Assembly (NCBI GenBank): GCA_041660165.1
Contig: JBAZWW010000003.1
Location: 68,352-132,351, forward strand
Direction of reading: 5' to 3'
Source of the DNA: Patescibacteria group bacterium
GTDB lineage: Bacteria; Patescibacteriota; Patescibacteriia; UBA9934
Length of the DNA: 64,000 bases
Shown here: one piece after another, positions 13,590 through 63,604 of the stretch
Position numbering within the stretch: the first letter of the stretch is position 1
Layout: every line of letters starts with the position of its first letter
Notes under the pieces: model-generated
Databases searched by the model: none
What the model was told of the DNA's origin: nothing
Seen by the model: only the letters and a program-made list of their open reading frames with translations
Position numbers and translations under genes: made by a program

Positions 13590-13773
13590 GTTATGAGGTG
13601 AAATTGCCGAGTTGGGCTGGTTTTCATTGGCGAGCGCACTCGGACTGCCCGCGTATCCCGCTACGAAGGCGTTTTTACAGCAACTATCAACAGATTTGTG
13701 CTAAATATGTTTGACTTGCTTTTGTTAAGCATAGTACACTATGTGTAACAAGTAACTAACACATTTCTTATCT

Positions 13774-15231
13774 ATGGTTAGCGATAAAAGCGTTGAGTTT
13801 TATAAGAAGATTATTCACGCTAATTCTCCGTGGATCCAGGATCCTAGTAGATTGATAGAGCCTGAGGCGTACAGGAGAGAGGCATTTTTTCAAGTGAAGA
13901 AGGAGCTTTCGGCACCGCATGGAAACGCGGTTCTCATAAAAGGACCCCGCCGTGTCGGAAAGACAGAAACACAAAGGCAACTTATTCAAGATCTCGTGCA
14001 AAGTGGAGTTTCGCCAAAGTTTATTCTCTACCTTTCTTTTGATGATTTACAGATTATTTCTGAACGTCCAGATGATAGAGCGAGGACCGTTCAGCATATT
14101 CTTGATGCTTGGGCAGAGATACTTGGTTTTGACATGTACGATGAGATTGCTGTTCCCGCCTATTGTTTTTTTGATGAGGTGCAAGAGGTGAAGGATTGGG
14201 CGCATCTTGTGAAGAATCGTATTGAAAGAAACCATCATGTTCGAATTGTACTATCCGGTTCAGCAGCTCACTCTATTTTTGAAAAGGCTCTCAAAATATT
14301 ACTTGGGAGAGTCATTGACGTTAAACTCGCCCCTTTTTCATTTCGGGAATATCTTGAGATGAATAAATATATCTCCCAAGAAACGCTCGCCGGAGTTCGC
14401 CAGGTACAGTTAGATTTTGAGCGAGGGTTAAACCCGGTGAATTTGTATAACGACCTGAAGACAGCCACAATGAGCTGTGATGCAACGAAGATCCGTACGT
14501 ATATTTCCGAATTCCTTCTGAAGGGCGGGTTTCCACAGCTATGGAAGATGGATCAGTATAGACAGCTCGAGACAGCGCAATTCATGGATGATAATTATGT
14601 GAAAAAGGTAACGCTTGAGGATCTCATGCTCTTACAGTCTATTAAGAAGCCGGAACTGTACGAAAGACTTCTACGGCACTTGTTTGCTAGGCCGGGACAG
14701 GAATATAGCCAACAGAAGGTGGCTGTCGAGCTTGGTACAACGACGGTCACTTTGGCAGAGGGCATGCGTCTCCTTGAGCAGACAGATCTGCTTATCTTTG
14801 TTGAGAAGTTTTCCTTAAGAGCTGAGCCACTGAAACGGAGAAATATAAAGGTTTATCCTGTCGATTTAATGCTCACGACAGCTATGACAAAAGTAATTCC
14901 GCAACTCGAAACCTTAGAAAAGGGGATGATTGCAGAATCCCTTGTTGCTCAAACTACGCACCGTTTAAAAAATCTTAGTGCTTTGGCTTTCATGCAGTCG
15001 GATGATGTAAGGTTTGCTGGCGAGATTGATTTCTATTTGCGTGCAGATATGCACGATTGTCCTGTGGAGGTGAAGTACCAAACAGATATCCGAGGTCAGG
15101 ACATTGCGGCCCTGAAGCGCGTGGTCGGCGAAAGAGGGCTTATTGGCGGAATTCTTGTAACTGTTGATGAGTGGCATGTCTCGCAGAATATATACTCCAT
15201 TCCCTTATGGGCATTTATGCTTTTGGCATAA
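13774..15231 (+). CDS. AAA+ ATPase (AAA_14/DUF4143 family)
   Basis: Walker A GPRRVGKT, Walker B FFDEVQ, C-terminal DUF4143-like region. Confidence 0.7.
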   Translation: MVSDKSVEFYKKIIHANSPWIQDPSRLIEPEAYRREAFFQVKKELSAPHGNAVLIKGPRRVGKTETQRQLIQDLVQSGVSPKFILYLSFDDLQIISERPDDRARTVQHILDAWAEILGFDMYDEIAVPAYCFFDEVQEVKDWAHLVKNRIERNHHVRIVLSGSAAHSIFEKALKILLGRVIDVKLAPFSFREYLEMNKYISQETLAGVRQVQLDFERGLNPVNLYNDLKTATMSCDATKIRTYISEFLLKGGFPQLWKMDQYRQLETAQFMDDNYVKKVTLEDLMLLQSIKKPELYERLLRHLFARPGQEYSQQKVAVELGTTTVTLAEGMRLLEQTDLLIFVEKFSLRAEPLKRRNIKVYPVDLMLTTAMTKVIPQLETLEKGMIAESLVAQTTHRLKNLSALAFMQSDDVRFAGEIDFYLRADMHDCPVEVKYQTDIRGQDIAALKRVVGERGLIGGILVTVDEWHVSQNIYSIPLWAFMLLA

Positions 15232-31474: not shown

Positions 31475-31538
31475 TAACGAAAACTGACCCCCGCGTTAGC
31501 GTTGGGGGCCAGTATATTTGCGCTCAGTCGGCGCACGC

Positions 31539-32177
31539 TTAGAGGCAGGATTGCCCGAGAGTAATCCAGAAGTGGTTGCCCGGGGCCTTGGGCTCGTAGT
31601 GGAGGTCCATTGTGCCCGTCATGGGCTGGGGCCGGCACTGGCGTCCCTGCAGGAGGTCGAACACGAAGTTCGTGTCCGCATTGAGCGCCTTCATGGGCAT
31701 CTTGGTGCCCTCCACCCACAAGGCGTCCACGTTCCACGTGGCGGAGGTCTCATAGACCGTGCCCTTCACCACAACCCGTCCATCGGTGACGCCGAGTTTG
31801 ACCCAGGCGTCCCCGAAGGGGAGGCAGGGAGCAGGCTCGCCGTCCGCGTTGATCACGGTGACGGAGGCGTATACGCCGCTGCGCGGATCGAGCCCGATGA
31901 CCACCGGCAGTGCTCCGCCCGTGATGTCCGGGGTGGTGCACGTACCGCGGTTGGGGTTCGTCACCTTGATGAGGCTGGTCAGCTTGTCACAGCCGTCCGG
32001 CCAATCAAGGAGGTAGACGCCCTCTTCGATGTTGTTGTGACCGCCTTCGCACTGCGGTTTCTTGAACCGCAGGTCCGTGTGCAGGTCGCTTGACCCGCGG
32101 TAGACGGCCACTTCCTTCGCGATGGCGGACGTGGTGACGGCCAGAACGGCGGCGACGATTCCAATGTAGCGGAACAT
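31539..32177 (-). CDS. secreted Cys-containing hypothetical protein (within the GC-rich island)
   Basis: Signal peptide MFRYIGIVAAVLAVTTSAIA; high GC3; antisense ORFs judged spurious. Confidence 0.5.
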   Translation of the reverse strand: MFRYIGIVAAVLAVTTSAIAKEVAVYRGSSDLHTDLRFKKPQCEGGHNNIEEGVYLLDWPDGCDKLTSLIKVTNPNRGTCTTPDITGGALPVVIGLDPRSGVYASVTVINADGEPAPCLPFGDAWVKLGVTDGRVVVKGTVYETSATWNVDALWVEGTKMPMKALNADTNFVFDLLQGRQCRPQPMTGTMDLHYEPKAPGNHFWITLGQSCL

Positions 32178-32350
32178 GATGCCTCCAAGGGGTGCGGATT
32201 TCAGCGAGACATGACGGAGAGCTTATGGGCCTTCCGTCCTGTCTGCAGTAGATCCGGCCTCCCCTCAATGAAGAAGGGAGACACGGGAGCCTCGCGTGTG
32301 GGCTCATCGATGACGTACCGTAGGGACGAGGCTCGGCCTCGTCCTTGTCG

Positions 32351-33109
32351 TTACGGTTTTTCGGCCGGTGTGGGCGTGGCCAGGGTGGCCCCGATCTTGG
32401 CGGCGGCCGTCTGCACGTCCGCCACTGAGGACCCGAGGTCGGCCTGACCGAGCGCCTCTGCGTCGATCTTGGCCTGTTCCTCGGGCGTCACGGGTACGCC
32501 GTCGGGCTTGTCCGCTAGCGTGCCGGTGTCTGGGATGGTGCCGGTCTTGGGCGTACGGCCGTAGAGGTCTCCGCGGAAGTCTGCGATGACCCCGCTTCCG
32601 CCGTACCTGTAACCACCGGCGCCGAAGCTGGAACCACGGCCGTTGCTCGTGACCGCCGTCGCCAGCGCCACGTCCGTACCAACGGCGAACGTGTCGCCGC
32701 TGATGAACACGGGCCGGCCGGACGAGATCGCGCTCGTCACCGCCGAACTGCGCGTCTGCGCGTCCGTGAACGCGGGCAGGATCTGCACGCTGGCGATCGT
32801 GACGTTCGCGCTGGTCCGCGCGAGCTCCACGCGCTCGTCGCTCTGGATGCGGGCGAGGGCGATGGTCCGATCGGCGCACTGCGTGGCGAACTTGGTGCCG
32901 GCACGCGTGGTCGTGTGAGACGGCTCCAGCGTGACGCCGGCGCAGTCGCCGTAGAACGTCGCCCGGCCCACGTTCGGCCCGTTTTGCGGGTCGGCCGTGG
33001 TGGCGGTGCTGACCGGGCCCCAGTTCGGTGCCGGGGTGGCCGTGGCGTCCTGGGCCATGGCGGACCCGGAAGCCAGAGTGAAAAGAATCGAAACCAGATA
33101 CTTGCGCAT
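32351..33109 (-). CDS. secreted hypothetical protein (within the GC-rich island)
   Basis: Signal peptide MRKYLVSILFTLASGSAMA; Thr/Ala-rich; high GC3. Confidence 0.5.
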   Translation of the reverse strand: MRKYLVSILFTLASGSAMAQDATATPAPNWGPVSTATTADPQNGPNVGRATFYGDCAGVTLEPSHTTTRAGTKFATQCADRTIALARIQSDERVELARTSANVTIASVQILPAFTDAQTRSSAVTSAISSGRPVFISGDTFAVGTDVALATAVTSNGRGSSFGAGGYRYGGSGVIADFRGDLYGRTPKTGTIPDTGTLADKPDGVPVTPEEQAKIDAEALGQADLGSSVADVQTAAAKIGATLATPTPAEKP

Positions 33110-33243
33110 GTTTACCTCGCGCTTGGGTGGTCGGTCCTAGGCTCAGCAATCGGACAGTCCGACGGCTTTGCCCAGACCCTTTAGAATAGCAAAAAAATGG
33201 GTTTTTGTCAATGTTTCAAAGAGGGTGTTTCTTGGCTAATCTA

Positions 33244-33272
33244 TTGACATTTTTGAAAATTTGGGGTATTCT
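33244..33272 (+). promoter_or_regulatory. sigma70-like promoter (TTGACA-17-TATTCT) in the AT-rich divergent region
   Basis: TTGACA at 33244-33249 and TATTCT at 33267-33272; the only AT-rich stretch in the island. Confidence 0.45.
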
Positions 33273-33338
33273 CTTTTGTCTTCCTCCCCGTGCTTGCACA
33301 AGGAGGAATGACCGTCTTGGTTAGGAATACCGTTCAAC

Positions 33339-35129
33339 ATGGGGCAACGGCAAAGCCGATCCCCGGAGGAAATGATCATGCGTCGTACCCGAAATGCCGG
33401 TACCCCGGCTCTCACTCCCGGTCAGGAGCGTGCTTCTGACCTGTGGGATCGAATCGTTGATCTGCGGTTCCTCCCGGGCCGTACGATCCGCGGTCGCGCG
33501 CCGGTTCGCGGTCCGGAGATCGTGGATCGCCCGACAGAGATCCAGGTGCTCAACTGGATCATGCTCAACTGGCTCCCTGGCAATCAGGGGGTCTTGAGCC
33601 TGCTCCCGGACATGACGGTGCCGGATGCGGGAGTGGGGAATTTCGACGTGGATACTCTGTTCCGCGTGCGCGACCCTGATCCCGTTCCACCCGCCGTGGA
33701 CACTCGGCCCACCCCCGCAGAGCGCGAAGCCGCCACCCAGGCGATTTACGCACTGCTGGACGGTCCGTTTGCCCCGTTCGAGCAGGCACTCCGCGCAGGC
33801 GGAACCCCGGCCATCCCGTGGTGGCTTCGGCCCTGGTTCGAAGGTCTGGACTTCGTGGATGACCACCTGACTGTGGCCAGCCAGGCGTTCTTGCCCCAAT
33901 GGAGGCTGGTTCTCGGGGCTCTTCGCGGAGTGGGCGGATTCGCGGGCATGTTCACGCTCGGGTTCGTTGGAGCCACGCTGGCCGTTCTCTGTGCGGGGAT
34001 GCCGTTCGTGGCCTTCATCTTGTTCCTGGGCGTGCTCTTCCTCGGTCGGCGCGCTCTCGGCCGGATCTGGGGATGGATCACGGGCGCTGCGGATTGGATC
34101 GTGGAACAGCCGGCGCGTATCTGGAACGCCATGTTCCCCGCGCTCGTGACGTCCCTGACACCGCCTCCCAGGCCTCCGACCGACCCCAACTTCGTGGAGG
34201 GCGTGTCGGATCTGTCGCCCATCGAGCGTCGTGTCATCGGGCGTCGGAACGCATGGGGTGTGGTGGCTGCCGTTATCTTCGGCGGTATCCCGTTCGCCTA
34301 CGGCATCATCATGTCCACGATCGGCCTGTACCACATCTACGAGCCGATCGCGGCTGGTGCCGTGAACCCTGTGTTTGAAGGCCTTGGCAACGGGGCATTC
34401 AACCCGGCATCGTTCAACCTGAACTACTATATGTTCATGGTTGAAATCTCCCGGTACATCCTGATGATTACGGAAGTCATTACGATGAGTGCCTGGGGGG
34501 TTCCGCGTATCCGTGAGTTCGACAACAACCTCGCTGACGGCACCGTGGTGGCTCATCCGACGGATTTCCGTCGCTTGATCGAGCGGTTTGGTCTTCTCAT
34601 GGTGTGGTTCCGCCTGGGTGCGTCCGGTCGATTCCGTCCGCACTTCATCACGATCTGCATCATCGTCGACTCCATCGCTGTTCTGCTGAATGGGTACGTA
34701 TACCCTATTCATCACACGGCTCAGGGGTGGGCCTGGTCCTCGACGTTGTTGACTTGGTGGTTGATCCTCATCATTAACGTGGGCATTCGCTTCGGCGGGT
34801 GGTTCAACTTCAATGATCGGGAGAAGCTCGTCAAGTCGCTTACGGGGTACCTGTTCACTGGCCTGGGTGCTCCGCTCGCCGTCATGCTGGTCATGGGGTT
34901 CCTTCCCCCCCGGCACGGTGATGACGTGATGACGCTGGCGCAGACGGCCGGTGGCAACGCGATGGTTGCCGCTAGCAACTACGTGGGCCCGGCAAAGCTC
35001 GATCGCCCGCCCGTCCTTCCGCGCCCCGAGTGCGCGAATGCGAAGGCCAAGGTGGCCGTGCTCGAAGCCAAGATCCCTGGCATCTGCCTGCGGAACCCCG
35101 GAAAGGTTCCCTGTAGCTGCCCGAAGTAG
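33339..35129 (+). CDS. large polytopic membrane protein (at least 8 TM) of unknown function, high GC
   Basis: Multiple hydrophobic helices (e.g. FAGMFTLGFVGATLAVLCAGMPFVAFILFLGVLFLG, WAWSSTLLTWWLILIINVGI); the antisense 614-aa ORF is R/H/D-rich junk. Confidence 0.55.
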   Translation: MGQRQSRSPEEMIMRRTRNAGTPALTPGQERASDLWDRIVDLRFLPGRTIRGRAPVRGPEIVDRPTEIQVLNWIMLNWLPGNQGVLSLLPDMTVPDAGVGNFDVDTLFRVRDPDPVPPAVDTRPTPAEREAATQAIYALLDGPFAPFEQALRAGGTPAIPWWLRPWFEGLDFVDDHLTVASQAFLPQWRLVLGALRGVGGFAGMFTLGFVGATLAVLCAGMPFVAFILFLGVLFLGRRALGRIWGWITGAADWIVEQPARIWNAMFPALVTSLTPPPRPPTDPNFVEGVSDLSPIERRVIGRRNAWGVVAAVIFGGIPFAYGIIMSTIGLYHIYEPIAAGAVNPVFEGLGNGAFNPASFNLNYYMFMVEISRYILMITEVITMSAWGVPRIREFDNNLADGTVVAHPTDFRRLIERFGLLMVWFRLGASGRFRPHFITICIIVDSIAVLLNGYVYPIHHTAQGWAWSSTLLTWWLILIINVGIRFGGWFNFNDREKLVKSLTGYLFTGLGAPLAVMLVMGFLPPRHGDDVMTLAQTAGGNAMVAASNYVGPAKLDRPPVLPRPECANAKAKVAVLEAKIPGICLRNPGKVPCSCPK

Positions 35130-35226
35130 GTCCTGCCCGTAGGGGAAACGGGAAGGGCCTCGCAACGGCCGGATGACATGAGCAGAAATGCTTATGACAA
35201 CCGGTCGTTTTCTAATTTAGAGAGAG

Positions 35227-36822: not shown

Positions 36823-38031
36823 ATGCCGAAGTTCAAAGACTTTCTCATTCTTCTCTTGGCCGTTTTGCCAACTTATCTTTTGCGTTTTCATCTTGGGCCG
36901 GTGCCAACTACTGTGCTCGAAATATATATATTGTTGATTATTGGGTACTGGTTTATTTTTGAGCAGGGTTATCGGTTAGATTTCTTGCGAACAATGGGCG
37001 CGTACCGGGTGCCATTCCTACTTCTCCTCGCTACTTCATGTTTTGCCGTGGCCGTGGCGCCGGATCCGATCTCGGCACTCGGCACCTGGAAGGCATTTTA
37101 TGTCGAGCCGATTTTGTTGTTTTTCGTTTTTCGTTCAACGTTCCTCGCGCGCGAGGATTGGACGCTCGCCCTTGGCGCTCTTGGCATCTCGGTGATTTCT
37201 ATTTCGATCTTTGCCGTTTTCCAACGAGTGACGGGCCTCGGCATTCCGGTGCCATGGGATATCGAGCTTCGAGCAACCTCGATCTTTGATTTCCCGAACG
37301 CCGTTGGCTTATTTGTCGGTCCGGCGGTTGCCGTGTTTGTCGTGCTCGCTGTAGACAAGGCTCGAGCACTCCGGGAACGAGTATTTTTCGGCATCTCAGC
37401 CATGTTCGGTGTCATCGCGATTGTTCTCTCGCAAACCGAGGCGCTATTCATTGCCTTGCCGGTAGCGTTTCTGTTCTCGCTTTTGCTGTCGAGCGCCCCG
37501 AAGAAGCTCAAGCTCGGCATCATTGGCGCGAGCATTTTCCTTGGCGTCATCGCCTTTGCGGGCAGTTCGACCGTTCGTGAGAAGCTGCTGCTTGAAGACC
37601 TTTCCGGTCAGGTTCGCCGTTCACAGTGGACGGAAACACTCGCCCTTCTAAAAGATCATCCCATTTTTGGCGCTGGCCTCCAGGGCTATCCCGCTGTTTT
37701 TGCTAAGTACCATGACCCGCGTCTGTACGAAATCTTCCAGTACCCGCATAACATTTTGCTGAATTTTTGGGTTGAGCTTGGCTTCCTTGGCGTGATCACG
37801 CTCGTTGTTTTCATTCTTTCAGTTCTTCAGGTGACATATATGCGCCGGACAGACATTTTTAGCCTCGTAGCCTTTGCCGGACTCGCCACCATGTGTATCC
37901 ACGGTCTGGTTGATGTGCCATTTTTCAAGAATGATCTGGCGGTACTGACGGTGTTCTTGTTGGCCCTGAGCTCGACCTCCTCTGGCTCCTCCTTGGAAAG
38001 GAGGAGGATCACTTATGACCCTGATCTATAA
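36823..38031 (+). CDS. O-antigen ligase/polymerase-like (Wzy_C) membrane protein
   Basis: Multi-TM with a central periplasmic loop; motifs SQTEALFIALP and FGAGLQGY; the C-terminal tail SSLERRR is encoded by the hairpin at 37987-38007. Confidence 0.65.
   Translation: MPKFKDFLILLLAVLPTYLLRFHLGPVPTTVLEIYILLIIGYWFIFEQGYRLDFLRTMGAYRVPFLLLLATSCFAVAVAPDPISALGTWKAFYVEPILLFFVFRSTFLAREDWTLALGALGISVISISIFAVFQRVTGLGIPVPWDIELRATSIFDFPNAVGLFVGPAVAVFVVLAVDKARALRERVFFGISAMFGVIAIVLSQTEALFIALPVAFLFSLLLSSAPKKLKLGIIGASIFLGVIAFAGSSTVREKLLLEDLSGQVRRSQWTETLALLKDHPIFGAGLQGYPAVFAKYHDPRLYEIFQYPHNILLNFWVELGFLGVITLVVFILSVLQVTYMRRTDIFSLVAFAGLATMCIHGLVDVPFFKNDLAVLTVFLLALSSTSSGSSLERRRITYDPDL
37987..38007. repeat. palindromic hairpin CTCCTCC-TTGGAAA-GGAGGAG (family A variant, left flank of DUF559 gene 1)
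   Basis: Perfect 7-bp stem; loop identical to the 63561-63577 copy upstream of the second DUF559 gene. Confidence 0.6.
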
Positions 38032-38410
38032 CCCATCATGGAGCATTGAACGGAGAAAGGAGCTTCGGATGAGAGCAACATTCGCTGAAATTGTGCTTTG
38101 GAATCTTTTGAGAAATAGGCAACTCATGAATGTGAAGTTTCGTCGGCAGTATGGTGTAGACGGGTACATTGTCGATTTTTATGCTGCCCAATTGAAATTT
38201 GCAATTGAGCTTGATGGGGCCGTTCACGATACTGAAGAGGCAAGAAGATACGACCAAATTAGAGACGAGCACTTGAGGGGAATCGGCATCGAAATACTAC
38301 GATTACGAAACGAGGAGGTTGTACTGGGGCAGGAGTCAGCTCTCAAGCGAATCACTGAAGCGATGCGCTCTCGTCAGGCGCGTTACCCCTCCTTACCAAG
38401 GAGGGGATAG
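38015..38410 (+). CDS. DUF559 (Vsr/restriction-endonuclease-like) domain protein
   Basis: Aligns from Met1 with the second DUF559 protein at 63608 (M-T-x-I-x-N-x-x-W-S-(I/L)-E-R-R-(K/R)-(E/D)-L-R, FRRQYG, (I/L)-(I/V/T)-D-F-Y, ELDG); the C-terminal tail RYPSLPRRG is encoded by the hairpin at 38386-38406. Confidence 0.7.
   Translation: MTLIYNPSWSIERRKELRMRATFAEIVLWNLLRNRQLMNVKFRRQYGVDGYIVDFYAAQLKFAIELDGAVHDTEEARRYDQIRDEHLRGIGIEILRLRNEEVVLGQESALKRITEAMRSRQARYPSLPRRG
38386..38406. repeat. palindromic hairpin CCCCTCC-TTACCAA-GGAGGGG (family A variant, right flank of DUF559 gene 1)
   Basis: Perfect 7-bp stem; loop in inverted orientation relative to the left-flank copy. Confidence 0.6.
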
Positions 38411-38433
38411 GGGAGGTATAATCACCTCACACT

Positions 38434-40320
38434 ATGCTCCCTCTTCTCAAACGCGCCTTTTCAGGTTTTCTTTTGCTGGTCACGCTCCTTCTTGGCGTCC
38501 CTTTTACGGCTTTTGCCTCGAGTATTCCTTATTCAGCTCTACGCATAACCACCACCGGCGGGGGGAATATCACTTTGGCGCCGGGGGAGGTGAAGAATAT
38601 TGCCGTTTCTTTTCAAAACAAGGGTTCGCAGACGTGGAAAAATGATGGCAACGGCTACATTTCGCTTTATACCTACGGCCCAAAGTACCGGGCGAGTGTT
38701 TTTGACCCAGGTACCTGGCTCACGCCCTCGCAGGTGAAGCGGATGGGGGAGGAAGGCGTGAAGCCCGGCGCCACGGGCACATTTTTGTTCAGCTTGAAAG
38801 CGCCAAAGACCCTTGGCACATACAAAGAAACTTTCGCCCTGGCGTCTGAGAATATCAATTGGGTTACGGGAGGTGACTTCACTTTGAATATCACCGTGCA
38901 AGCGTCGAGTACTGCCAATGCGCCAGCTGTAGACCCCCGCCCGGACGATCCGGTCGGACGGGCTTCCTCACGTCAGGGTCTGGTTCCCGTTTCCACCGTC
39001 GCTCCCGATGCCTCTATTGGCTACTCAGCCAGTCTGGTCACCCAAACCGCTTCCAAAATGAAGGTCCTGGCTAAGAAAACAATCTCATTTTCGGCCGTTA
39101 TTCAGAACACGGGAACAAAGACATGGAAGAACATTGGGCTCTCGTCTTCAGCCATGAACATTGCTTCTGGGTCGAGTGATTTTAGGAACAGCACATGGTC
39201 TGGCAATCAGGTTGCCCTCCTCTCGCAAACAGTGAAGCCTGGCGCTACGGCCACGGTTCAGTTTTTCTTCACCTCGCCCAGCGTCAACGGAACACATACC
39301 GCGAAGTTTCAGATTACTGCAGACGGCATCAGTATTCCTGACAGCTTCGTGACCATTCCCGTTGAAGTAACCGGCGGATCGGCTGAAGCACTCGACGCCC
39401 CATTAGAAAGCGGGGTTTCCAACCCCTCCTCCGTGCCGGCCGCACTGATAACTGAACCAACTATCCGCGTGGGCGTGTTGATTGTGGACGAGGAGACAAA
39501 AGACGAGGCGGTCATCACCTCATTTGAAAGCGATTTTGATTTAATTGATACAGATGGCACGATCCTTGGTTCTTATCCAAGAGGGAAAGAGATCCGGACG
39601 GCATGGGATGGAGCGAATTATCTCTATAACGACGGTGCACACAAAAAGTCCTCGAAACCGCTCCGTTTCGTTCCAAAGACGCCAAACGCAGTCATGACCA
39701 TTACAAATTTTGATCGTCGGCTCACTCGCGGAACCTCGTTCGCAAACAACACTTTTAGAAACGTACTCGAACTCCGCTACAACACGCCGAATAATCGCAC
39801 TTGGGTTATAAATGAACTCCCGCTCGAATATTATTTACGAGGATTGGCTGAAACGTCTGATTCCTCGCCCGTTGAATTTCAGAAAGCGTTGTTAACCGCG
39901 GCCAGGACATACGCTTTTTATCACTGGACGCACAGCACTAAGCACAGAGCCGAAGGATTCCACGTAGACGCTTACCAAGACCAGGTGTACTGGGGCTATG
40001 ACCAGGAGGCCAGGACTCCGCGTATTACCGGAGGCGTGCAGGCCACGCGCGGTCAGATTGTCACGTACAACGGTGATACCGCCGTCACCTCATTCTTTTC
40101 TCGCTCGGATGGCAGAACTCGCAACTGGTCAGAAGTTTGGGGCGGAAACGTTCCGTATGCCAAATCCGTCCCCGTGCCGTGTGACGTTGGCAAGACTTTG
40201 TGGGGCCACGGCGTAGGCATGTCCGCTTCCGGCGCTCTCTGCATGGCCAAAGACGGTCAGGATTGGCAATCCATTCTCAAATATTTCTACACCGGCGTTG
40301 ATATTTCACAACGCTGGTAA
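38434..40320 (+). CDS. SpoIID/LytB-domain cell-wall protein with N-terminal Ig-like repeats
   Basis: Signal peptide; two TWKN-containing Ig-like repeats; C-terminal SpoIID/LytB-like region (NELPLEYYLRG...YWGYDQE...LWGHGVGMS). Confidence 0.7.
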   Translation: MLPLLKRAFSGFLLLVTLLLGVPFTAFASSIPYSALRITTTGGGNITLAPGEVKNIAVSFQNKGSQTWKNDGNGYISLYTYGPKYRASVFDPGTWLTPSQVKRMGEEGVKPGATGTFLFSLKAPKTLGTYKETFALASENINWVTGGDFTLNITVQASSTANAPAVDPRPDDPVGRASSRQGLVPVSTVAPDASIGYSASLVTQTASKMKVLAKKTISFSAVIQNTGTKTWKNIGLSSSAMNIASGSSDFRNSTWSGNQVALLSQTVKPGATATVQFFFTSPSVNGTHTAKFQITADGISIPDSFVTIPVEVTGGSAEALDAPLESGVSNPSSVPAALITEPTIRVGVLIVDEETKDEAVITSFESDFDLIDTDGTILGSYPRGKEIRTAWDGANYLYNDGAHKKSSKPLRFVPKTPNAVMTITNFDRRLTRGTSFANNTFRNVLELRYNTPNNRTWVINELPLEYYLRGLAETSDSSPVEFQKALLTAARTYAFYHWTHSTKHRAEGFHVDAYQDQVYWGYDQEARTPRITGGVQATRGQIVTYNGDTAVTSFFSRSDGRTRNWSEVWGGNVPYAKSVPVPCDVGKTLWGHGVGMSASGALCMAKDGQDWQSILKYFYTGVDISQRW

Positions 40321-46553: not shown

Positions 46554-47698
46554 AGATTTTTATTGATTTTGACCACACGCTAACCCGGGGCCGGGAGTTT
46601 GGGGATGCCATTTTGGGCGAACTGGGCGGGGAGTCAGCGGAAATTTTGCGCACCGCGCTTCGGGATTTTAGGCAAACGCATGATTTTACGTTGGAAGCCG
46701 TTTCTCAGCTCTTTGAACAGTTCGGCTTTCCGCCTGAGCGAACGATCAGTATGTATGAAGCGTATGCCAAGCGGATGGAGGAGTTTTTGGCGCCAGATGC
46801 CCATGAATTTCTGTCCGCTTTGAAGGCATTGGGCCACGAGCTGATACTCCTCACGCGTTCTCCTGACGTGGAAACATGGCAACGGCCAAAGGTGCTGGCG
46901 TCAGGGCTGAGTGAATATTTTACTGGCATTGAGATTACGAGCGGAGCAAAAGTGGACGTGATAGAGATGCTCGGCCACCAAGAGCCGTTTATATTTATTG
47001 ATGATCTCCCAAAGGAAACGGAAGAAATGCAAGCACGTTTTCCGGTGGCGCTTTGTATTACGCATGAAAAAGGCGCCCCGCTCATGGAGCATCTTTTCAC
47101 TATTGCCGGTTTTGCTAATCGTGACGAGCTAAAAACGCTTCCGTTGCCGATTAATACCGCGATCAACATCGGAAATCTTTCACTCGAGGACGGCGAACAG
47201 CTGGCCGTAACGTTTGGCCTCGACAAAAAAGCAGTCGACGCTTTCAAAAAGCGTTCGTGTGATGAAACGGATGAAGAGCTCATGCGTTTTACGAGTGATC
47301 ACGAGCGGATTTGCCTTGGTTCGTATGAAACTTGGTATGCCAAGGAGCGCTACCCGTTTGGCCTCATGAGCAAGTCCGGCGAACTGGCCGGCATTGCCTG
47401 GTTTGGCCCAAAGGCGTTTCCCTCGATTGAAAAAGCGGGGTTTCAAACCCCGCCCATGACCGCGAACGCCGAGTGGCATACCTTTGCTGTCCGCATGTAT
47501 AACCCGTATCGCGGAAAACGGCTGGCTTTCCCCTTTGCTTCCTTTGTTTTTAAGGCTTACAATACCTTTCTTCCTCCGCATCCGCTTTGGCTTGATACAA
47601 GTCCGGAAAACGCTGGCGCCATTCGGTTATACTCAAAGCTAGGATTCATCGAGCATGGACATCGAGAGGATGGCCGAGTAGTCATGATCCGCCCGTAA
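46550..47698 (+). CDS. HAD-like hydrolase fused to a GNAT acetyltransferase
   Basis: N-terminal DxD motif FIDFDHTL; C-terminal GNAT-like region; contains in-frame palindrome B at 47435-47453. Confidence 0.55.
   Translation: MKIFIDFDHTLTRGREFGDAILGELGGESAEILRTALRDFRQTHDFTLEAVSQLFEQFGFPPERTISMYEAYAKRMEEFLAPDAHEFLSALKALGHELILLTRSPDVETWQRPKVLASGLSEYFTGIEITSGAKVDVIEMLGHQEPFIFIDDLPKETEEMQARFPVALCITHEKGAPLMEHLFTIAGFANRDELKTLPLPINTAINIGNLSLEDGEQLAVTFGLDKKAVDAFKKRSCDETDEELMRFTSDHERICLGSYETWYAKERYPFGLMSKSGELAGIAWFGPKAFPSIEKAGFQTPPMTANAEWHTFAVRMYNPYRGKRLAFPFASFVFKAYNTFLPPHPLWLDTSPENAGAIRLYSKLGFIEHGHREDGRVVMIRP
47435..47453. repeat. palindromic hairpin GCGGGGTT-tca-AACCCCGC (family B, copy 1, in-frame in the HAD-GNAT gene)
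   Basis: Perfect 8-bp stem; encodes KAGFQTPP. Confidence 0.6.
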
Positions 47699-47700
47699 CT

Positions 47701-48981
47701 ATGCCTCGCGTTAAACTGACCGAATTTCGGGCGAAGAAGCTCATCCTCGGCAACACCTACGCCGGTGTTTCTTTTTGTGGTGTGGTGCGTTCTCCCTCTT
47801 TCCAAGAGGGCGTCAGTACGGGTGGGCGTTCCCCCTCTTTCCAAGAGGGTGTCAGGACGGATGGGCGCTCCCCCTCTTTCCAAGAGGGGGCTACGGGGGA
47901 GTCGGTGGTGCGTTGGGTGGTCAAAGTCGATCAAGGTATCAAAAAGCGCTTCAAGCAAGGCCTCGTCAAAGTGAATATCTCGGCGGACGAGATTTTGAGC
48001 GCTGTCGAGCCTTGGAAGGCAAAGGGCTTCTCGCAATTCATTGCCGAGCCGTTTGTCGAGCACTCGGCGAACGAGGAACAGTATCTTTCGCTTGAGCGCG
48101 TGCGTGAGGGGGTTCGCATTTTGCATACCGCCGAGGGCGGAGTTGATATTGAGGCGCATCCGGAAGCTGTCCGATCATATGTCGTCGAAAATGCGGGCGA
48201 GATTTCATTGATCGCTAAAGAGACGAAGATTCCGCAGGCATTCCTTGAACAGTTAATTTCAACTTTTAACGATAAGATGTTTGCATTTCTTGAGATCAAT
48301 CCGCTTGTGATCAAGGGTGATCGAGTCTATTTGCTCGACGCTGCCGTGCTCGTGGACAGCGCAGGAATCTTCTTTGTGCACGGCGCGTGGACGGCGAGTG
48401 ATCTTGTTCTGCCCACCGCCAAGCATCCGGCTGAAGCGCGGGTCGAGGAATTAGCGAAAACCACTCCCGCCTCGCTCAAATTGTCCGTGCTGAATCCTGA
48501 CGGAGCATTGTTTTTCTTGTTGTCTGGCGGTGGGGGATCAATCGTGATCGCAGATACCGTCATGAACAAAAGCGGGGTTTCAAACCCCGCCCACGGCGCG
48601 GGCCAACTGATCGGCAACTACGGCGAGTACAGCGGAGGGCCCACGCGCGAAGAGACGTTTTTGTACACTCGCGAGGTACTCGGTTTGTTGCTCGGATCGA
48701 GCGCGCCGAAGAAGGCGCTCATAATTGCCGGGGGAGTGGCAAACTTTACGGATGTGAAGCGGACGTTTGCAGGCATCATTGACGCGTTGACCGAGCGCTC
48801 AGCCGAACTCCGTAAGCAGGGCGTTAAGGTGTTTGTGCGCCGGGGCGGACCGAATGAACAGGCGGGACTGGCCATGATGCGTGAGTTCCTGACCGCCGAG
48901 GGATTGCTCGGTGCCGTTTATGGATCAGAGGCGGTGATGACTAAGGCGGTAGAAGACGCCATAGCTTTTGTAAAAGTATGA
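47701..48981 (+). CDS. ATP-grasp subunit resembling ATP-citrate lyase beta / succinyl-CoA synthetase beta (AclB-like)
   Basis: ATP-grasp plus CoA-ligase fold; near the N-terminus carries three tandem 13-aa in-frame repeats (SPSFQEGxxTxGR) from element A, and a family B hairpin at 48572-48590. Confidence 0.65.
   Translation: MPRVKLTEFRAKKLILGNTYAGVSFCGVVRSPSFQEGVSTGGRSPSFQEGVRTDGRSPSFQEGATGESVVRWVVKVDQGIKKRFKQGLVKVNISADEILSAVEPWKAKGFSQFIAEPFVEHSANEEQYLSLERVREGVRILHTAEGGVDIEAHPEAVRSYVVENAGEISLIAKETKIPQAFLEQLISTFNDKMFAFLEINPLVIKGDRVYLLDAAVLVDSAGIFFVHGAWTASDLVLPTAKHPAEARVEELAKTTPASLKLSVLNPDGALFFLLSGGGGSIVIADTVMNKSGVSNPAHGAGQLIGNYGEYSGGPTREETFLYTREVLGLLLGSSAPKKALIIAGGVANFTDVKRTFAGIIDALTERSAELRKQGVKVFVRRGGPNEQAGLAMMREFLTAEGLLGAVYGSEAVMTKAVEDAIAFVKV
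47784..47903. repeat. three tandem 39-bp copies of palindromic element A (GGTGCGTT-CCCCCTCTTTCCAAGAGGGGG-CTACGGGGGAGTC)
   Basis: Direct reading of the sequence; in-frame within the AclB-like CDS. Confidence 0.85.
48572..48590. repeat. palindromic hairpin GCGGGGTT-tca-AACCCCGC (family B, copy 2, in-frame in the AclB-like gene)
   Basis: Identical 19-mer, read in a different frame (KSGVSNPAHG). Confidence 0.6.
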
Positions 48982-50874: not shown

Positions 50875-51942
50875 TTAGCGCGAGATCTCGAGAATCCCCG
50901 TTGGCACCCCGAGCGTCTCAAGCATTTGCTTCGCCTTCTCCTCGCTGGCCGGCATCATTTGGCGTTTTTGGAGGTAGAGCGGTTCGAATTTGAGCGTCAG
51001 TTTGTCAGCCTCGACGGTTAAGCGGACAGCCAGCCCGCTTTTTGTAGCTTCCGAGAAATCTTGATCGAACAAGAAATTGCCGAGCGAATAGACGATCGGG
51101 ACATTTTTGTATGTTTCGACGGTTTCAATGACATGCGGATGTCCGCCAATGACGGCGTCTGCGCCAGCGTCAACAAATTGATGCCCCGCAAAGATCTGTG
51201 AGCTGGACGGATTGTGCTGATACTCCACGCCCCAGTGAGGCATAACGATCACGAAATTGCCGGCGGATTTTTCAAGTTTGATGGCCTCGACAATGCCAGC
51301 GGTTGTTTCGTTAAAAGCGTGGTAGCCAATAAAGGCAAAAGTTATTCCGTTCACGGTTTTGTGGGCTACAAACTTTCCGCCTTCCCACGCATCGCCAAAC
51401 GGAGTCATGCCGGCGTTCGTGATTGTTGTCCTGGTGAGCTCCGCGGTTGCCCGGCCATAATCATCAGCATGATTGTTCGACAATGAAAGCAAGTCGAATC
51501 CTTGGGTGGCGAGCATTGAAACATTGCCGGGCGTGGTGTCAAAGTTCATGACGTTTGTTCCTTCGATGTTTTCTTTTTCGCGTACTGTTCCCTCAAAATT
51601 ACCGATAAGCAGGTCACTATTTGAAAGCAAATCTCCAACCTTCGCAAACGGATATTCGGTGCCGTAAAGTTTTATGTATTGCTCCACGTTTCTTGCGAGC
51701 ATAATGTCGCCCACGAATTCAAGAGTCGTGCTCGAGTCGTTCGGTGAGGGCACGATATCCGCCGTAGGGGTCGATCCATGTATCGACCCCGCAGTGACGA
51801 TGCGATCTCCCGCCATGGTCAGATGCGCCCTTCGAGAGATTTCGATGGACGAATTTGCTTTAGAAAACGGCGATACCACAAGAAATCCGATGAGAACGGT
51901 GAGTCCAAGCGCGGTTAACAGTATGGCGAGTTTTGGGGTCAT
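50875..51942 (-). CDS. CapA/PGA_cap-family metallophosphatase-like protein
   Basis: N-terminal TM; motifs FVGDIM, NFEG, NNHADDYG, GGHPHV; carries in-frame element C at 51767-51790. Confidence 0.7.
   Translation of the reverse strand: MTPKLAILLTALGLTVLIGFLVVSPFSKANSSIEISRRAHLTMAGDRIVTAGSIHGSTPTADIVPSPNDSSTTLEFVGDIMLARNVEQYIKLYGTEYPFAKVGDLLSNSDLLIGNFEGTVREKENIEGTNVMNFDTTPGNVSMLATQGFDLLSLSNNHADDYGRATAELTRTTITNAGMTPFGDAWEGGKFVAHKTVNGITFAFIGYHAFNETTAGIVEAIKLEKSAGNFVIVMPHWGVEYQHNPSSSQIFAGHQFVDAGADAVIGGHPHVIETVETYKNVPIVYSLGNFLFDQDFSEATKSGLAVRLTVEADKLTLKFEPLYLQKRQMMPASEEKAKQMLETLGVPTGILEISR
51767..51790. repeat. palindromic hairpin GGGGTCGAT-ccatgt-ATCGACCCC (family C, copy 1)
   Basis: Perfect 9-bp stem; encodes GSIHGSTPTA on the minus strand. 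Confidence 0.7.
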
Positions 51943-53410: not shown

Positions 53411-55261
53411 TTACGTAACGAACGGTAACGTGATCCCCTTAGCCTTGGCCAACCAATAGCCAAGCGCCCCCAAACTGGTAGTGAGTAACCCGCCTCCCAC
53501 CCACGGAATTTGTTTCGTGGGCGGGGGAGCGATGAGATTGTGATTCCTCTCCCCGCTAGGGGAGGAAGTAGGTAGGGGGGTTGTCATATCTGCCGTAGGG
53601 GTCGATCCATGTATCGACCCCGTAAGCACGCTCATCCCCTTCGTCTCCGTTATGGCGAGCGTCCACGCTCCGCTCTTCACTCGCGCCACGCCCGTCACTG
53701 CAATACGGTCGCCGAAGGCCAGGTCAGCAAAGTTGATGGCCACATGCGGAGCAGATGCTATGGCAAGGGTGTCGCCATTTTCGAGTTCCACCGTTACTCC
53801 GCCTTTGGCCATGTCCGTGACCGAGCCTTCCAGACTGAAGTATCCGCCTTGGACAGCTTCGTCGAGTGAGTTAAGCGAGTCTGGCGCCAGCGCGTCCTGG
53901 CCGGTTGTTTTAATGTCCAACCGTTTGCTTATCTTGAGACGCACATAGCCGTCTTTTTGTTGAACCACGCCGGTAACCTGCACGTGTGCCATGTATTTCA
54001 GCTTTGGCCAGTCGGCTTTGTTGAAATACACTTCAAGTCCATTTAGATACATCAGCTGTTTGCCGAATACTCCCGGCAGGCCAACCACTACGCCATCAAC
54101 GGTCACAATTTCTCCATCCGGGACATCGCCGAGTTCTGAGACGTCGAGTACCGTCAGGGTGGTTCCTCTCCCCGTGAGGGGAGAGGCTAGGTGAGGGGTA
54201 GCGGTGGCCGGGGGCAGGGGGGAGGCTACGCTGTCCGCCACCGTTGTTGCGAGCTCCAGCCGAACAGGGCTTGGGGCGGGGGCATCAGGGTTAGTTCCTT
54301 GAGCTTGGTCTTGAACGGCCGGATCAGGGTTGATAACGGCAGGAGTGTTGATTGTCGTCTCATATGTTGTATTCGTTGTGTCGTAGGGGTCGATCCATGT
54401 ATCGACCCTCGTATTAATGGCGAGCGGAGTGGGATCAGATTCAATCCACGTTCCGTCGGGTTGTTTAGCGAGTGATTTTCCTTTTTTCGGCGCCGTTTTG
54501 CCGGTGTACGATATCGCGTCAATCGTTGCTCCGGTTCCATCGAACAGGAAGATTGAGTCGCCATCGTTATTGAGTTTGCCCTTCGGGTTTTGTAGGACAA
54601 AGAAGGCGTGCGCCGGCAGAATCTGATCGGGCAACGGAGTTTTACTTGTCGTCGCATCTTTAACCGTCCACCCGCCGAGAGAGATTTCGTCTTCGGTTGT
54701 GTTGAGAAGCTCAATCCATTCCACACCATCGGCCGGATCAGATACGAATTCATTGATGAGGACGGAGCCAGTGGGATACGGGATTGGCCCGGGTGCCACG
54801 GGCGGTACCACGGGCGCGGTTGATGGCGCGGGCGTTAGGGTGGTCAATGGGGGTGCCGTAGGGGTCGATCCATGTATCGACCCCGCCTCGGTAGGCGTGA
54901 TGATCGGCGCGGGCGCCTCAATCGGCAATGGCTCGATGACCGTGATTGGCGCAACGGGTTCTGGTTCAGGTTCCGGTGCAACTGGTTCCGGTGCCGGCAA
55001 TGGGGCCGTCTGCACCGGACACAGCAGGCACGGATCCCCGGCGTCATCCCCTCCTTGTGAGGGAGGCTCGCCCGTAGGTTGCGAAGTTACGCCCGAGGAG
55101 GGCAGAGGGATGGAGGGGGCCAAGGGGGTGGCTACGTCTCCACCGGTCCCAGCGCTTTCGACGGTTTCGACGATCGCGGTTTCGGATGCGTCTTCTGCTC
55201 TCGCGGGTAGAGGAGACACAAAGGGCAAGAGGGTGAGGATTCCCAAGAGTCCATAGTACAT
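53411..55261 (-). CDS. secreted lamin-tail-domain (LTD) protein, Pro/Thr-rich, with a C-terminal membrane anchor
   Basis: LTD pattern VLINEFVSDPADGVEWIELLNTTEDEISLGGWTVKD...LNNDGDSIFLFD; signal peptide; C-terminal TM; contains three family C and two family D hairpin elements in-frame. Confidence 0.65.
   Translation of the reverse strand: MYYGLLGILTLLPFVSPLPARAEDASETAIVETVESAGTGGDVATPLAPSIPLPSSGVTSQPTGEPPSQGGDDAGDPCLLCPVQTAPLPAPEPVAPEPEPEPVAPITVIEPLPIEAPAPIITPTEAGSIHGSTPTAPPLTTLTPAPSTAPVVPPVAPGPIPYPTGSVLINEFVSDPADGVEWIELLNTTEDEISLGGWTVKDATTSKTPLPDQILPAHAFFVLQNPKGKLNNDGDSIFLFDGTGATIDAISYTGKTAPKKGKSLAKQPDGTWIESDPTPLAINTRVDTWIDPYDTTNTTYETTINTPAVINPDPAVQDQAQGTNPDAPAPSPVRLELATTVADSVASPLPPATATPHLASPLTGRGTTLTVLDVSELGDVPDGEIVTVDGVVVGLPGVFGKQLMYLNGLEVYFNKADWPKLKYMAHVQVTGVVQQKDGYVRLKISKRLDIKTTGQDALAPDSLNSLDEAVQGGYFSLEGSVTDMAKGGVTVELENGDTLAIASAPHVAINFADLAFGDRIAVTGVARVKSGAWTLAITETKGMSVLTGSIHGSTPTADMTTPLPTSSPSGERNHNLIAPPPTKQIPWVGGGLLTTSLGALGYWLAKAKGITLPFVT
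53544..53566. repeat. palindromic hairpin TTCCTCTCCCC-gct-AGGGGAGGAA (family D, copy 1)
   Basis: Near-perfect stem; encodes PSGERN in the LTD protein. Confidence 0.55.
53598..53621. repeat. family C hairpin, copy 2
   Basis: GGGGTCGATCCATGTATCGACCCC, identical to copy 1. Confidence 0.7.
54165..54186. repeat. palindromic hairpin CCTCTCCCC-gtg-AGGGGAGAGG (family D, copy 2)
   Basis: Perfect 9-bp stem; encodes ASPLTGRG in the LTD protein. Confidence 0.6.
54386..54408. repeat. family C hairpin, copy 3
   Basis: GGGGTCGATCCATGTATCGACCC. Confidence 0.7.
54861..54884. repeat. family C hairpin, copy 4
   Basis: GGGGTCGATCCATGTATCGACCCC. Confidence 0.7.
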
Positions 55262-60781: not shown

Positions 60782-61729
60782 ATGACCAAGAAACGCCTTG
60801 CCATTTTAACTGGCGGGACAAGCGCTGAGCGTGACATTGCTCTGGCGTCCGCAAAAACAGTCGCTGATCTGCTTGCCGAACGGTATGACATAACCAAGTT
60901 CGATTTTCCAAGTGAGATTGACGCATTCCTAGCGCAACGAGATACCTTCGATGTCGCAATCCCCATCTTCCACGGTAAGGGCGGGGAAGACGGAACCGTG
61001 CAGGGCTTCTTGAAAACGCTCGGCGTGCCATTTCTATTCTCGGACGTCACCGCACATGCCATTGGCATGGACAAGACCTTGGCGAAAACCGTTGTGTCTA
61101 CCGTCGGTCTTCATACGCCGAGCTCGATCGTTCTGACTCGTGTTGAGTTCCTTCAGGGTGGCTCCCCCTCTTTCCAAGAGGGGGCCAGGGGGAGTCTCGG
61201 GATGGTCAGGGTGGTCAAGCCTCTGGATTCCGGCAGTACCCTCGGCATCACCATCGTCCGCTCTTCCAACGACCTACAGTCAGCCCTCGAAAACGCTTTT
61301 AAGCATTCCGATAAAGTGCTCATTGAGGATTTCATTGGAGGCGACGAATTCACCGTGGCTGTGATCGACGAACATGGCGAATCAATCGCCTTGCCCGTGA
61401 TTCAAATCGTCTCGCCGAACGGGATATACGATCACTCCGCCAAGTACGGCCCACAGCCAGCCGAGAAACTTTGCCCGGCGCCGATTAGCGAAGATCTCAC
61501 TTTACGCCTTCAAGAATCCGCCGTCACCGCGCACAAAGCCATCGGCGCCAGGCATTTGTCGCGGACAGATTTCATCGTTGACCGAGAGGGGACAATTTGG
61601 TTCCTTGAAATCAACACCATTCCCGGCCAATCCGTCTTATTTCCAAAAGCCGTAAAAGCATCAGGCCGTGATTTTGCAGAGATATTTGCCGACTGGATTG
61701 AGTCTGTCTACCTTGCCAAATCCTCCTGA
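60782..61729 (+). CDS. ddl: D-alanine--D-alanine ligase
   Basis: Ddl N-terminus RLAILTGGTSAERDIALASAK, ATP-grasp motifs, EINTIPG; carries a 39-bp in-frame insertion of element A (encoding GGSPSFQEGARGS). Confidence 0.9.
   Translation: MTKKRLAILTGGTSAERDIALASAKTVADLLAERYDITKFDFPSEIDAFLAQRDTFDVAIPIFHGKGGEDGTVQGFLKTLGVPFLFSDVTAHAIGMDKTLAKTVVSTVGLHTPSSIVLTRVEFLQGGSPSFQEGARGSLGMVRVVKPLDSGSTLGITIVRSSNDLQSALENAFKHSDKVLIEDFIGGDEFTVAVIDEHGESIALPVIQIVSPNGIYDHSAKYGPQPAEKLCPAPISEDLTLRLQESAVTAHKAIGARHLSRTDFIVDREGTIWFLEINTIPGQSVLFPKAVKASGRDFAEIFADWIESVYLAKSS
61157..61196. repeat. palindromic element A inserted in-frame in ddl
   Basis: GGTGGCTCCCCCTCTTTCCAAGAGGGGGCCAGGGGGAGTC. Confidence 0.85.
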
Positions 61730-63545: not shown

Positions 63546-63604
63546 GACTCCCCCGTAGCCCCCTCTTGGAAAGAGGGGGAGCGCACACCCTGACAGCACG
63601 CACC
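63546..63604. repeat. palindromic element A (inverted orientation, left flank of DUF559 gene 2)
   Basis: GACTCCCCCGTAGCCCCCTCTTGGAAAGAGGGGGAGCGCACACC..GCACGCACC is the reverse complement of element A. Confidence 0.8.

Follow-up and report, generated by a model that had tools for sequence, protein, structure and literature searches.

The catalogue of BoxC/PIT/TM repeats goes back to the 1990s (Bachellier et al.; Hoyne & Maher 2000, 2002; Holder et al. 2015). They are described as class II purine-motif intrastrand triplexes, with 23 copies of the E. coli form (TMECO) in strain K-12 and members in more than 260 genomes; TMECO oligonucleotides fold as triplexes in vitro by circular dichroism and nuclear magnetic resonance, TM loci are more rearranged among E. 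coli strains and sometimes occur as inverted pairs, and PIT elements are cited as lacking promoter or terminator activity in E. coli (PMC4666352). The class has no known function or origin, and the same study reports no mobility functions near TM motifs and does not mention DUF559, ycjD or an endonuclease (PMC4666352). Here we analyse a 64,000-nucleotide stretch of DNA from a Patescibacteria group bacterium (contig JBAZWW010000003.1, positions 68,352 to 132,351; hereafter the window), in which a gene of the DUF559 nuclease family stands between two inverted repeat units that we assign to this class, the whole forming what we call cassette 1. The same association is found across bacterial phyla, which suggests that the DUF559 nuclease is what spreads triplex repeats.

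DUF559 is one of the larger uncharacterised nuclease families, present in E. coli as YcjD and fused into type I restriction enzymes. Several described systems share part of the layout seen here. As in REP/RAYT systems, one small enzyme gene lies between two inverted short structured repeats, the repeat also occurs solo and as inverted doublets, and the gene is vertically inherited and under selection. RAYT is however an HUH/Y1 transposase of the IS200/IS605 type, whereas DUF559 is a Vsr-fold PD-(D/E)XK nuclease, and a REP is a plain imperfect palindrome that has no mirror third arm. Because the enzyme class differs, we use REP/RAYT as an analogy and do not claim membership. The Vsr-like (EDxHD) homing endonucleases (I-Bth0305I; 'fractured genes') have a homologous fold, are small, selfish-looking inserted genes and carry upstream hairpins, but their place is in an intron or intein, or they split host genes of phage-like DNA (PMC3239194, PMC2677866). 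Their hairpins, moreover, are one-sided RNA regulators with late-promoter motifs and not dispersed repeats. Rickettsia palindromic elements (RPEs) are longer than the units here, at ~100–150 bp, and have neither a known enzyme nor pyrimidine/purine mirror arms. Finally, hairpin ends with no obvious target duplication recall IS200/IS605 elements, and gene-less miniatures recall MITEs (miniature inverted-repeat transposable elements); the cassette however is only ~440 bp long, is without an HUH or DDE transposase and has inverted triplex motifs for ends.

Anatomy and insertion of cassette 1

Cassette 1 (Table 1) is bounded by two hairpins, A upstream and B downstream of DUF559 gene 1, which were folded both as RNA and as DNA. 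The loops are mutually inverted (GGA in A and ACC in B, where an exact complement would be TCC) and the inverted symmetry of the ends runs over 32 nt (compare ACCTCCTCTGGCTCCTCCTTGGAAAGGAGGAG with the downstream end in reverse complement, ACCTCCCCTATCCCCTCCTTGGTAAGGAGGGG), with ~26 of 32 positions agreeing when read by eye. We refer to the arms of this cassette, CYCCTCCTT/AAGGAGGRG, as type 1, and to the CCCCCTCTT/AAGAGGGGG arms found elsewhere in the window as type 2. The core 17-mer, with up to three mismatches allowed, has six matches in the window against 0.23 expected, and seven pyrimidine/purine hairpins with a stem of at least 8 bp are present compared with 0–1 in each of 20 shuffles. 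An Rfam scan of 37900–38500 at E values up to 10 returned only noise.

An earlier note on this DNA had described a hairpin-gene-hairpin architecture. The hairpins are there, but a third arm that accompanies them was overlooked, so that the BoxC/PIT/TM class was not recognised; the family-wide layout was missed as well. In almost every unit a third purine block lies a few nucleotides past the purine arm (or, as its complement, ahead of the pyrimidine arm), as a mirror of that arm and not as its complement. The third arms of both cassette 1 units, set off by a spacer of 3 nt, fit G*G, A*A and T*A triplets at 8/8 positions, as do those of four further units in the window. Among the 124 metagenomic hairpin copies listed, 88 have at least 8/9 triplet-compatible positions and 63 are perfect, the corresponding figures for shuffled flanks being 7 and 0; opposite G the third-arm base is G in 538/543 cases, and opposite A it is T in 182 and A in 47. 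A perfect mirror arm likewise accompanies 55% of 168 DUF559-flanking hairpins from 80 genomes. This value drops to 5% if arms are exchanged between loci, demonstrating that the third arm covaries with the stem.

On the strength of this arrangement the cassette units belong to the BoxC/PIT/TM intrastrand triplex class, with triplex folding predicted here. In both, a pyrimidine arm is followed by a short loop, a purine arm, a spacer of ~3 nt and a mirror purine arm, in which G faces G and either A or T faces A, and both are multi-copy, dispersed, found in inverted pairs and located at variable loci. The arms of cassettes 1 and 2 do not, however, match the TMECO consensus CCCTCNCCC-N3-6-GGGNGAGGG-N3-GGGNGAGGG, and the assignment is accordingly to the broader class, not to the E. 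coli subfamily. Two further differences are that some copies here lie inside coding regions, whereas those of E. coli are always intergenic, and that the units here enclose a nuclease gene, while in published work no mobility gene is linked to the repeats.

The upstream ligase gene's open reading frame (ORF) reads hairpin A as SSLERRR and continues for seven more codons (ITYDPDL) across the start of DUF559 gene 1; its last ~19 codons (from ~37970: STSSGSSLERRRITYDPDL) cross the left unit into the DUF559 gene 1 start region. The earlier note gave the sequence of hairpin A and its SSLERRR reading correctly, but placed the hairpin at 37987–38007 rather than 37986–38006 and took these for the last codons of the ligase. 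Its placement of hairpin B, and the C-terminal tail YPSLPRRG that this hairpin encodes in DUF559 gene 1, were both confirmed. Read-through of units by the ligase, DUF559, D-Ala-D-Ala ligase (Ddl) and other genes occurs because all-pyrimidine and all-purine arms encode no stop codon in any frame on either strand, and for the same reason PSLPRRG- or PLPGGEG-like tails, the product of read-through units, are common in DUF559 annotations.

Comparison with relatives bears on how the cassette came to its present place. The gene order Polysacc_synt, Wzy_C ligase, SpoIID-like is conserved, and in three relatives (L085, L086 and L087) the junction DNA has no DUF559 gene; in a fourth, for which the gene table only was used, the SpoIID-like gene directly follows the ligase. 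The junction of L085 is without a unit, and there the ligase stop codon TAA lies inside a conserved TATAAT just upstream of the SpoIID-like start. The arrangement TATAAT-N11-12-ATG is kept in L085, L086, L087 and L001. In the window this TATAAT comes directly after ...GGGGAGG, and its position compared with that in L085 delimits an inserted block of ~443 bp, at ~37975–38417. The L085 stop within TATAAT also indicates that the C-terminal extension of the ligase in the window is derived, through read-through of the inserted hairpin. Judged from these junctions, block 37975–38417 is an insertion, made in an ancestor common with L001, and the earlier proposal of an inserted cassette that had fused its hairpin onto the ligase 3′ end holds. 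The ligase orthologs were checked for the extension as well: many end in ...FLGMVL or ...FLAMML without it (including P0124 and P0129–P0131), and the pattern of an extension in all of them with no DUF559 neighbour was not found. Other orthologs have different hairpin-coded tails (PPPTPPWKGGE, HPSLKRE), and P0136 has two internal hairpin-coded inserts (NSPSLRRRGLGG..., SPSQGDTGGRG...). At the same junction L087 carries a gene-less doublet of ~105 bp (3720–3825), in which the left unit is of type 1 and the right unit type-2-like; it resembles both the inverted TM pairs of E. coli and a REPIN/MITE-like derivative. A possible cassette remnant is present in L086. Insertion of an element into the loop of a pre-existing hairpin was also considered; it is not supported by the empty L085 site.

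The four closest DUF559 homologs (L001–L004, 54–66% identity) were compared together with their contigs. All four have CCCCTCCTTACCAAGGAGGGG-NTAR-GGGGAGGT downstream of the gene, and upstream L002–L004 have ACCTCCTCCGRCTCCTCCTTRGAAAGGAGGAG (with one mismatch in L004) and L001 the variant ACCTCACCTACCCTCTCCTTGGAAAGGAGAGG. The conserved block therefore takes in ~32 nt at each end, as mutually inverted copies. The right-unit hairpin of cassette 1 is identical in L001–L004 and in more than 100 metagenome contigs. The neighbours in L001 are those of the window (ligase and SpoIID-like); in L002–L004 the DUF559 gene is preceded by a HIT-family gene and has an epimerase or NUDIX gene downstream. Identity between the window and L001 is 69.6% for the ligase, 72.6% for the SpoIID-like protein and 66.4% for DUF559. 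Since DUF559 has diverged about as far as the genes flanking it, cassette 1 is old and has been vertically inherited at this locus. The insertion may in addition have supplied a new −35 element for the SpoIID-like gene, as a promoter-like site at 38393–38422 (TTACCA-18-TATAAT, a 10/12 sigma-70-like match) has the hairpin B loop as its −35.

DUF559 genes and triplex-type units across phyla

We scanned a DUF559 alignment against one genome per species, yielding 80 loci with 82 DUF559 genes that span Bacteroidota, several proteobacterial classes, Cyanobacteria, Patescibacteria, Acidobacteriota, Planctomycetota, Verrucomicrobiota and others. Loci of 6 kb were then searched by script for perfect pyrimidine/purine stems. 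Hairpins with a stem of at least 8 bp were found within the upstream 100 bp in 44/79 loci and within the downstream 100 bp in 39/79, compared with about one per 70 bins of 100 bp farther out, an enrichment at DUF559 borders of ~40-fold. Other kinds of hairpin showed only a weak rise there. Under looser criteria (stem of at least 7 bp, within ~200 bp) 53 of the 82 genes have hairpins on both sides, 25 have them on a single side and 4 have none, so that at least one side is occupied in 78/82. Within a locus the stem sequence is usually common to both units, but it changes from one locus to another. Most pairs are inverted; a smaller number are direct, have long identical flanks and look like tandem duplications.

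Blocks of unit, DUF559 and unit also occur in frame within restriction-modification genes, both in hsdR (L006, 2077–5937; L042, 1894–5658; L059, 1870–5613) and in hsdM (L007, 1531–3729; L009, 1573–3768). The insert lies between the nuclease and ATPase domains of HsdR and inside N6_Mtase in HsdM, in hosts of unrelated phyla. A metagenome scan for the type-1/2 hairpin gave at least 120 loci. Among the matches listed, ~6 of ~135 hairpin copies adjoin a DUF559 ORF and ~95% are solo, nearly all of the solo copies listed having the third arm. Other arrangements of units were seen in single contigs: in L096 four poly-C/poly-G units are arrayed in tandem at a period of 72 nt (13654–13890), and in L150 three copies are dispersed over 7 kb.

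The product of DUF559 gene 1 matches PF04480 with 100.9 bits (cutoff 20.6) over profile positions 6–108 of 109, and its sole Pfam matches, DUF559, MTES_1575, DUF2726 and PvuRts1I-like, are all PD-(D/E)XK nucleases; no transposase domain was found in the Pfam scan of the cassette. The protein keeps all invariant residues of the family (R18, T22, E25, W29, F42, R43, R44, Q45, Y51, I52, D54, F55, D67, G68, H71 and D80). Within a 30-sequence alignment, in gene 1 numbering, D54, D67, H71 and D80 never vary and E65 is kept in at least 90% of the sequences, and the set D54, E65-x-D67, H71 and D80 is the presumed active site, its catalytic role being extrapolated from Vsr. The DUF559 structure 3HRL in the PDB is matched at E 5.9e-12 with the single sequence and at 9e-33 with the family profile, and the family profile also matches the homing endonuclease I-Bth0305I (3R3P, E 2e-6). 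Detection of both makes nuclease activity plausible. The gene 1 locus has no intron or intein. For gene 1 against L001 dN/dS (the ratio of nonsynonymous to synonymous divergence) is ~0.07, with dS saturated, and for L003 against L004 it is 0.035; the DUF559 gene is intact and under purifying selection. Scans with PADLOC and NCBIfam assigned DUF559 to no defence system and yielded no specific name for it, and relatives are almost absent from phage records, with two weak matches.

In E. coli a canonical type-A TMECO, CCCTCGCCC-ctctg-GGGAGAGGG-tta-GGGTGAGGG, which fits the consensus, is located ~170 bp downstream of ycjD. At the stop codon of ycjD itself (L088, K-12 1351200–1351830; L209) lies a degenerate unit, and a fragment from the 3′ end of the gene is duplicated. 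Of 5,426 complete E. coli genomes, ~3,350 contain the ycjD segment. One genome without ycjD (H20) was examined; there fabI adjoins a TetR/RND efflux island, and the junction shows no clear unit.

How nuclease and repeat may be linked

Repeat motif and protein family have each been described before. We found no paper connecting DUF559 to these repeats or describing the hierarchy of cassette, miniature and solo unit, in a search that did not cover subscription-only literature. The explanation we favour, at a probability of roughly 55%, is a REP/RAYT-like system in which DUF559 genes are the gene-bearing members of the triplex repeat family, an action of the nuclease on the repeats included. The cassette (triplex-type unit, DUF559 gene, inverted triplex-type unit) entered between the ligase 3′ end and the SpoIID-like promoter and leader, removing the ligase stop codon, and the ligase ORF has since run on through the left hairpin. 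On single-stranded or supercoiled DNA the mirror purine arm would fold back as a purine-motif triplex. The Vsr-fold nuclease would recognise its own unit, either as the folded hairpin/triplex or by sequence, and nick or cut there, and recombination or repair synthesis would then place copies of units, and occasionally of the gene, at new sites. The solo units and the inverted doublets without a gene would be non-autonomous derivatives, standing to the cassette as REP and REPIN do to RAYT. Both the action of the DUF559 protein on the units and the way of movement are what we infer from these patterns. A broader version is more tentative, and we would not quite back it at even odds: that DUF559 (YcjD-like) nucleases are the missing enzyme behind BoxC/PIT/TM, recognising hairpin plus purine-motif triplex as the end of a ~450-bp cassette and thereby seeding solo repeats, inverted doublets and in-frame insertions (hsdR, hsdM, Ddl and others) across most bacterial phyla.

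Several observations weigh against such a system. At cassette 1 there is no direct repeat of 5 nt or more within 35 nt on each side that could be a target-site duplication, and no defined cleavage site was found. The cassette has long been vertically inherited and behaves as a resident gene, not as a recently active element. Most units lie far from any DUF559 gene. The third arm is outer relative to the gene in the window and inner in many other loci, and some pairs are direct, so that no single simple transposition geometry fits all cases. In E. coli, megablast matches outside the ycjD locus, mostly to its TMECO part, fall at 3 places in ycjD-less genomes and 3–5 in those with ycjD, in a handful of records; with unit counts this similar, current mobilisation in E. 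coli is not evident.

Were the nuclease shown to act on triplex units, the two would constitute a distinct class of repeat-plus-enzyme system, a REP/RAYT-like paradigm with a different enzyme fold, and triplex DNA would have a natural biological role. The phylum-spanning link joins two puzzles, the origin of the repeats and the role of DUF559, into one testable hypothesis. It would explain the published inverted TM pairs as gene-less derivatives, and would trace the odd PSLPRRG- and PLPGGEG-like tails and inserts of annotated proteins to the reading through of repeat arms that have no stop codon.

The alternative that survives best holds that DUF559 is a free-standing homing-type selfish gene that lands in pre-existing units, which themselves spread by other means. 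This is unlikely in our view, although it agrees with most units being solo, with the homology of the DUF559 profile to a real homing endonuclease and with the nested or multiple units beside some genes (L011, L041, L062 and L016). The empty L085 junction, however, offers no unit in which to land. The two units of a cassette have the same arm sequence and accompany the gene in unrelated contexts, and the gene-less doublet of L087 looks like a deletion derivative of a cassette.

Still less probable is that the hairpins serve in cis as expression or insulation elements of a DUF559 gene that benefits its host, for example through sequestration of the ribosome-binding site, protection of transcript ends or autoregulation, with no role in mobility. 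Purifying selection on the gene would be expected on this account, free-standing Vsr-like homing endonuclease genes do have regulatory 5′ hairpins (PMC2677866), and the third arm abuts the start codon in many loci. The 3′ arm GGAGGAGG stands 7–10 nt before the ATG of cassette 1, where it could serve as a Shine-Dalgarno sequence; as a general role we rejected this, since it fits cassette 1 only and neither cassette 2 nor L001–L004. The distance from hairpin to start codon ranges from 8 to more than 60 nt among orthologs, and 37800–38600 contains no T-run or terminator-like site. PIT elements are inactive as promoters or terminators in E. coli (as cited in PMC4666352). The unit moreover is inverted on both sides of the gene and also occurs solo in coding regions and in gene-less doublets. 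Nor does the mirror arm have a role in an RNA hairpin, as purine-motif triplexes do not form in RNA (PMC4666352).

We give little credence to a third possibility, in which triplex units are fragile, recombinogenic DNA and DUF559 is incidental cargo caught between them. The greater rearrangement of TM loci among E. coli strains (PMC4666352) and the variability of the ycjD segment (~38% of genomes are without it, an efflux island taking its place where examined) are what such fragility would produce. It does not account for an enrichment that is specific to DUF559 borders within the 6-kb loci, across phyla, with neighbouring genes not bracketed, nor for units that abut or overlap ORF ends and paired ends that match. 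That the hairpins are chance palindromes, or the ancestral ligase C terminus, is already refuted by the shuffles, the ligase orthologs without extension and the empty L085 site, and has only the low complexity of C/T and G/A runs in its favour.

Other units and repeats in the window

Near the end of the window lies cassette 2, of which the left hairpin (63559–63579) is CCCCCTCTT-GGA-AAGAGGGGG and the right hairpin, from 63984, is CCCCCTCTT-TCC-AAGAG..., incomplete at the window end. The loops of each cassette are inverted relative to each other (GGA/ACC for gene 1, GGA/TCC for gene 2) and the two DUF559 proteins align from Met1, with 45% identity by tblastn, in agreement with the earlier note on both points. 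The note had also seen in cassette 1 an older insertion of the same cassette as that of gene 2; with 45% identity and a repeat type of its own, however, each is a separate cassette. The two represent different subfamilies within an element family that is very widespread.

Type-2 units are found at five places in the 64 kb. An array of three copies is located in frame near the N terminus of an ATP-citrate-lyase-like ORF (47701–48981; Citrate_bind, Citrate_synth_N), where the copies encode VRSPSFQEGVSTGG, RSPSFQEGVRTDG and RSPSFQEGATGES; the segment 47867–47905 is 38/39 identical to the left unit of cassette 2. The solo unit within Ddl may be viewed as an RPE-like insertion in an essential gene. 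Two solo insertions are flanked by 9-bp direct repeats, TGGTGCGTT (47783/47906) and TCAGGGTGG (61153/61206). The same 9-bp words also stand beside other units (63976, 54154), and we therefore treat them as internal to the element and not as proven target duplications.

Table 1. Positions of cassette features, neighbouring genes and solo units, in window coordinates
Feature	Position	Strand	Description
Ligase gene, O-antigen-ligase family (Wzy_C)	36823-38031	plus	Pfam PF04932, E 5.9e-19
Left unit, cassette 1	37975-38006	minus	CTCCTCCTT-tcc-AAGGAGGAG-cca-GAGGAGGT; hairpin 37986-38006 and third, mirror arm 37975-37982
Hairpin A	37986-38006		CTCCTCC-TTGGAAA-GGAGGAG; 21 nt, 9-bp perfect stem and 3-nt loop (CCTT-GGA-AAGG) by folding
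DUF559 gene 1	38015-38410	plus	131 aa; Vsr-fold PD-(D/E)XK nuclease; PF04480, E 4.7e-29
Right unit, cassette 1	38386-38417	plus	CCCCTCCTT-acc-AAGGAGGGG-ata-GGGGAGGT; hairpin 38386-38406 and third arm 38410-38417
Hairpin B	38386-38406		CCCCTCC-TTACCAA-GGAGGGG; 21 nt, 9-bp perfect stem and 3-nt loop (CCTT-ACC-AAGG) by folding
TATAAT, leader and SpoIID-like start codon	38417-38436	plus	Right-hand insertion boundary
SpoIID-like gene	38434-40320		Downstream of cassette 1; Pfam SpoIID
Solo type-2 array	47794-47902	plus	Two degenerate copies and one full copy (47870-47902), period 39 nt
Solo unit, third sequence type	54165-54197	plus	CCTCTCCCC-gtga-GGGGAGAGG-cta-GGTGAGGG; z -3.6
Solo type-2 unit	61164-61195	plus	In frame in Ddl ORF 60782-61729; encodes ...GGSPSFQEGARGS...
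Left unit, cassette 2	63547-63579	minus	CCCCCTCTT-tcc-AAGAGGGGG-ctac-GGGGGAGT
DUF559 gene 2	63608 to window end (64000)	plus	PF04480, E 2.5e-29; runs off window end

The window also holds repeats of other kinds. An exact 25-nt palindromic repeat, AAAGCGGGGTTTCAAACCCCGCCCA, lies in two adjacent ORFs (47432–47456 and 48569–48593), where it is read as KSGVSNPAH; this is a second family of intragenic palindromes, with no relation to the units. Another repeat family, GGGGTCGAT-ccatgt-ATCGACCCC, has four copies (at 51767, 53598, 54386 and 54861) in and around a Lamin-tail-domain ORF on the minus strand (53411–55261). Finally, 31500–35000 is a high-GC island, with 59–70% in most 500-bp windows compared with ~50% elsewhere and very long overlapping ORFs (33339–35129 on the plus strand, 33321–35165 on the minus strand), which may be foreign or unusual DNA.

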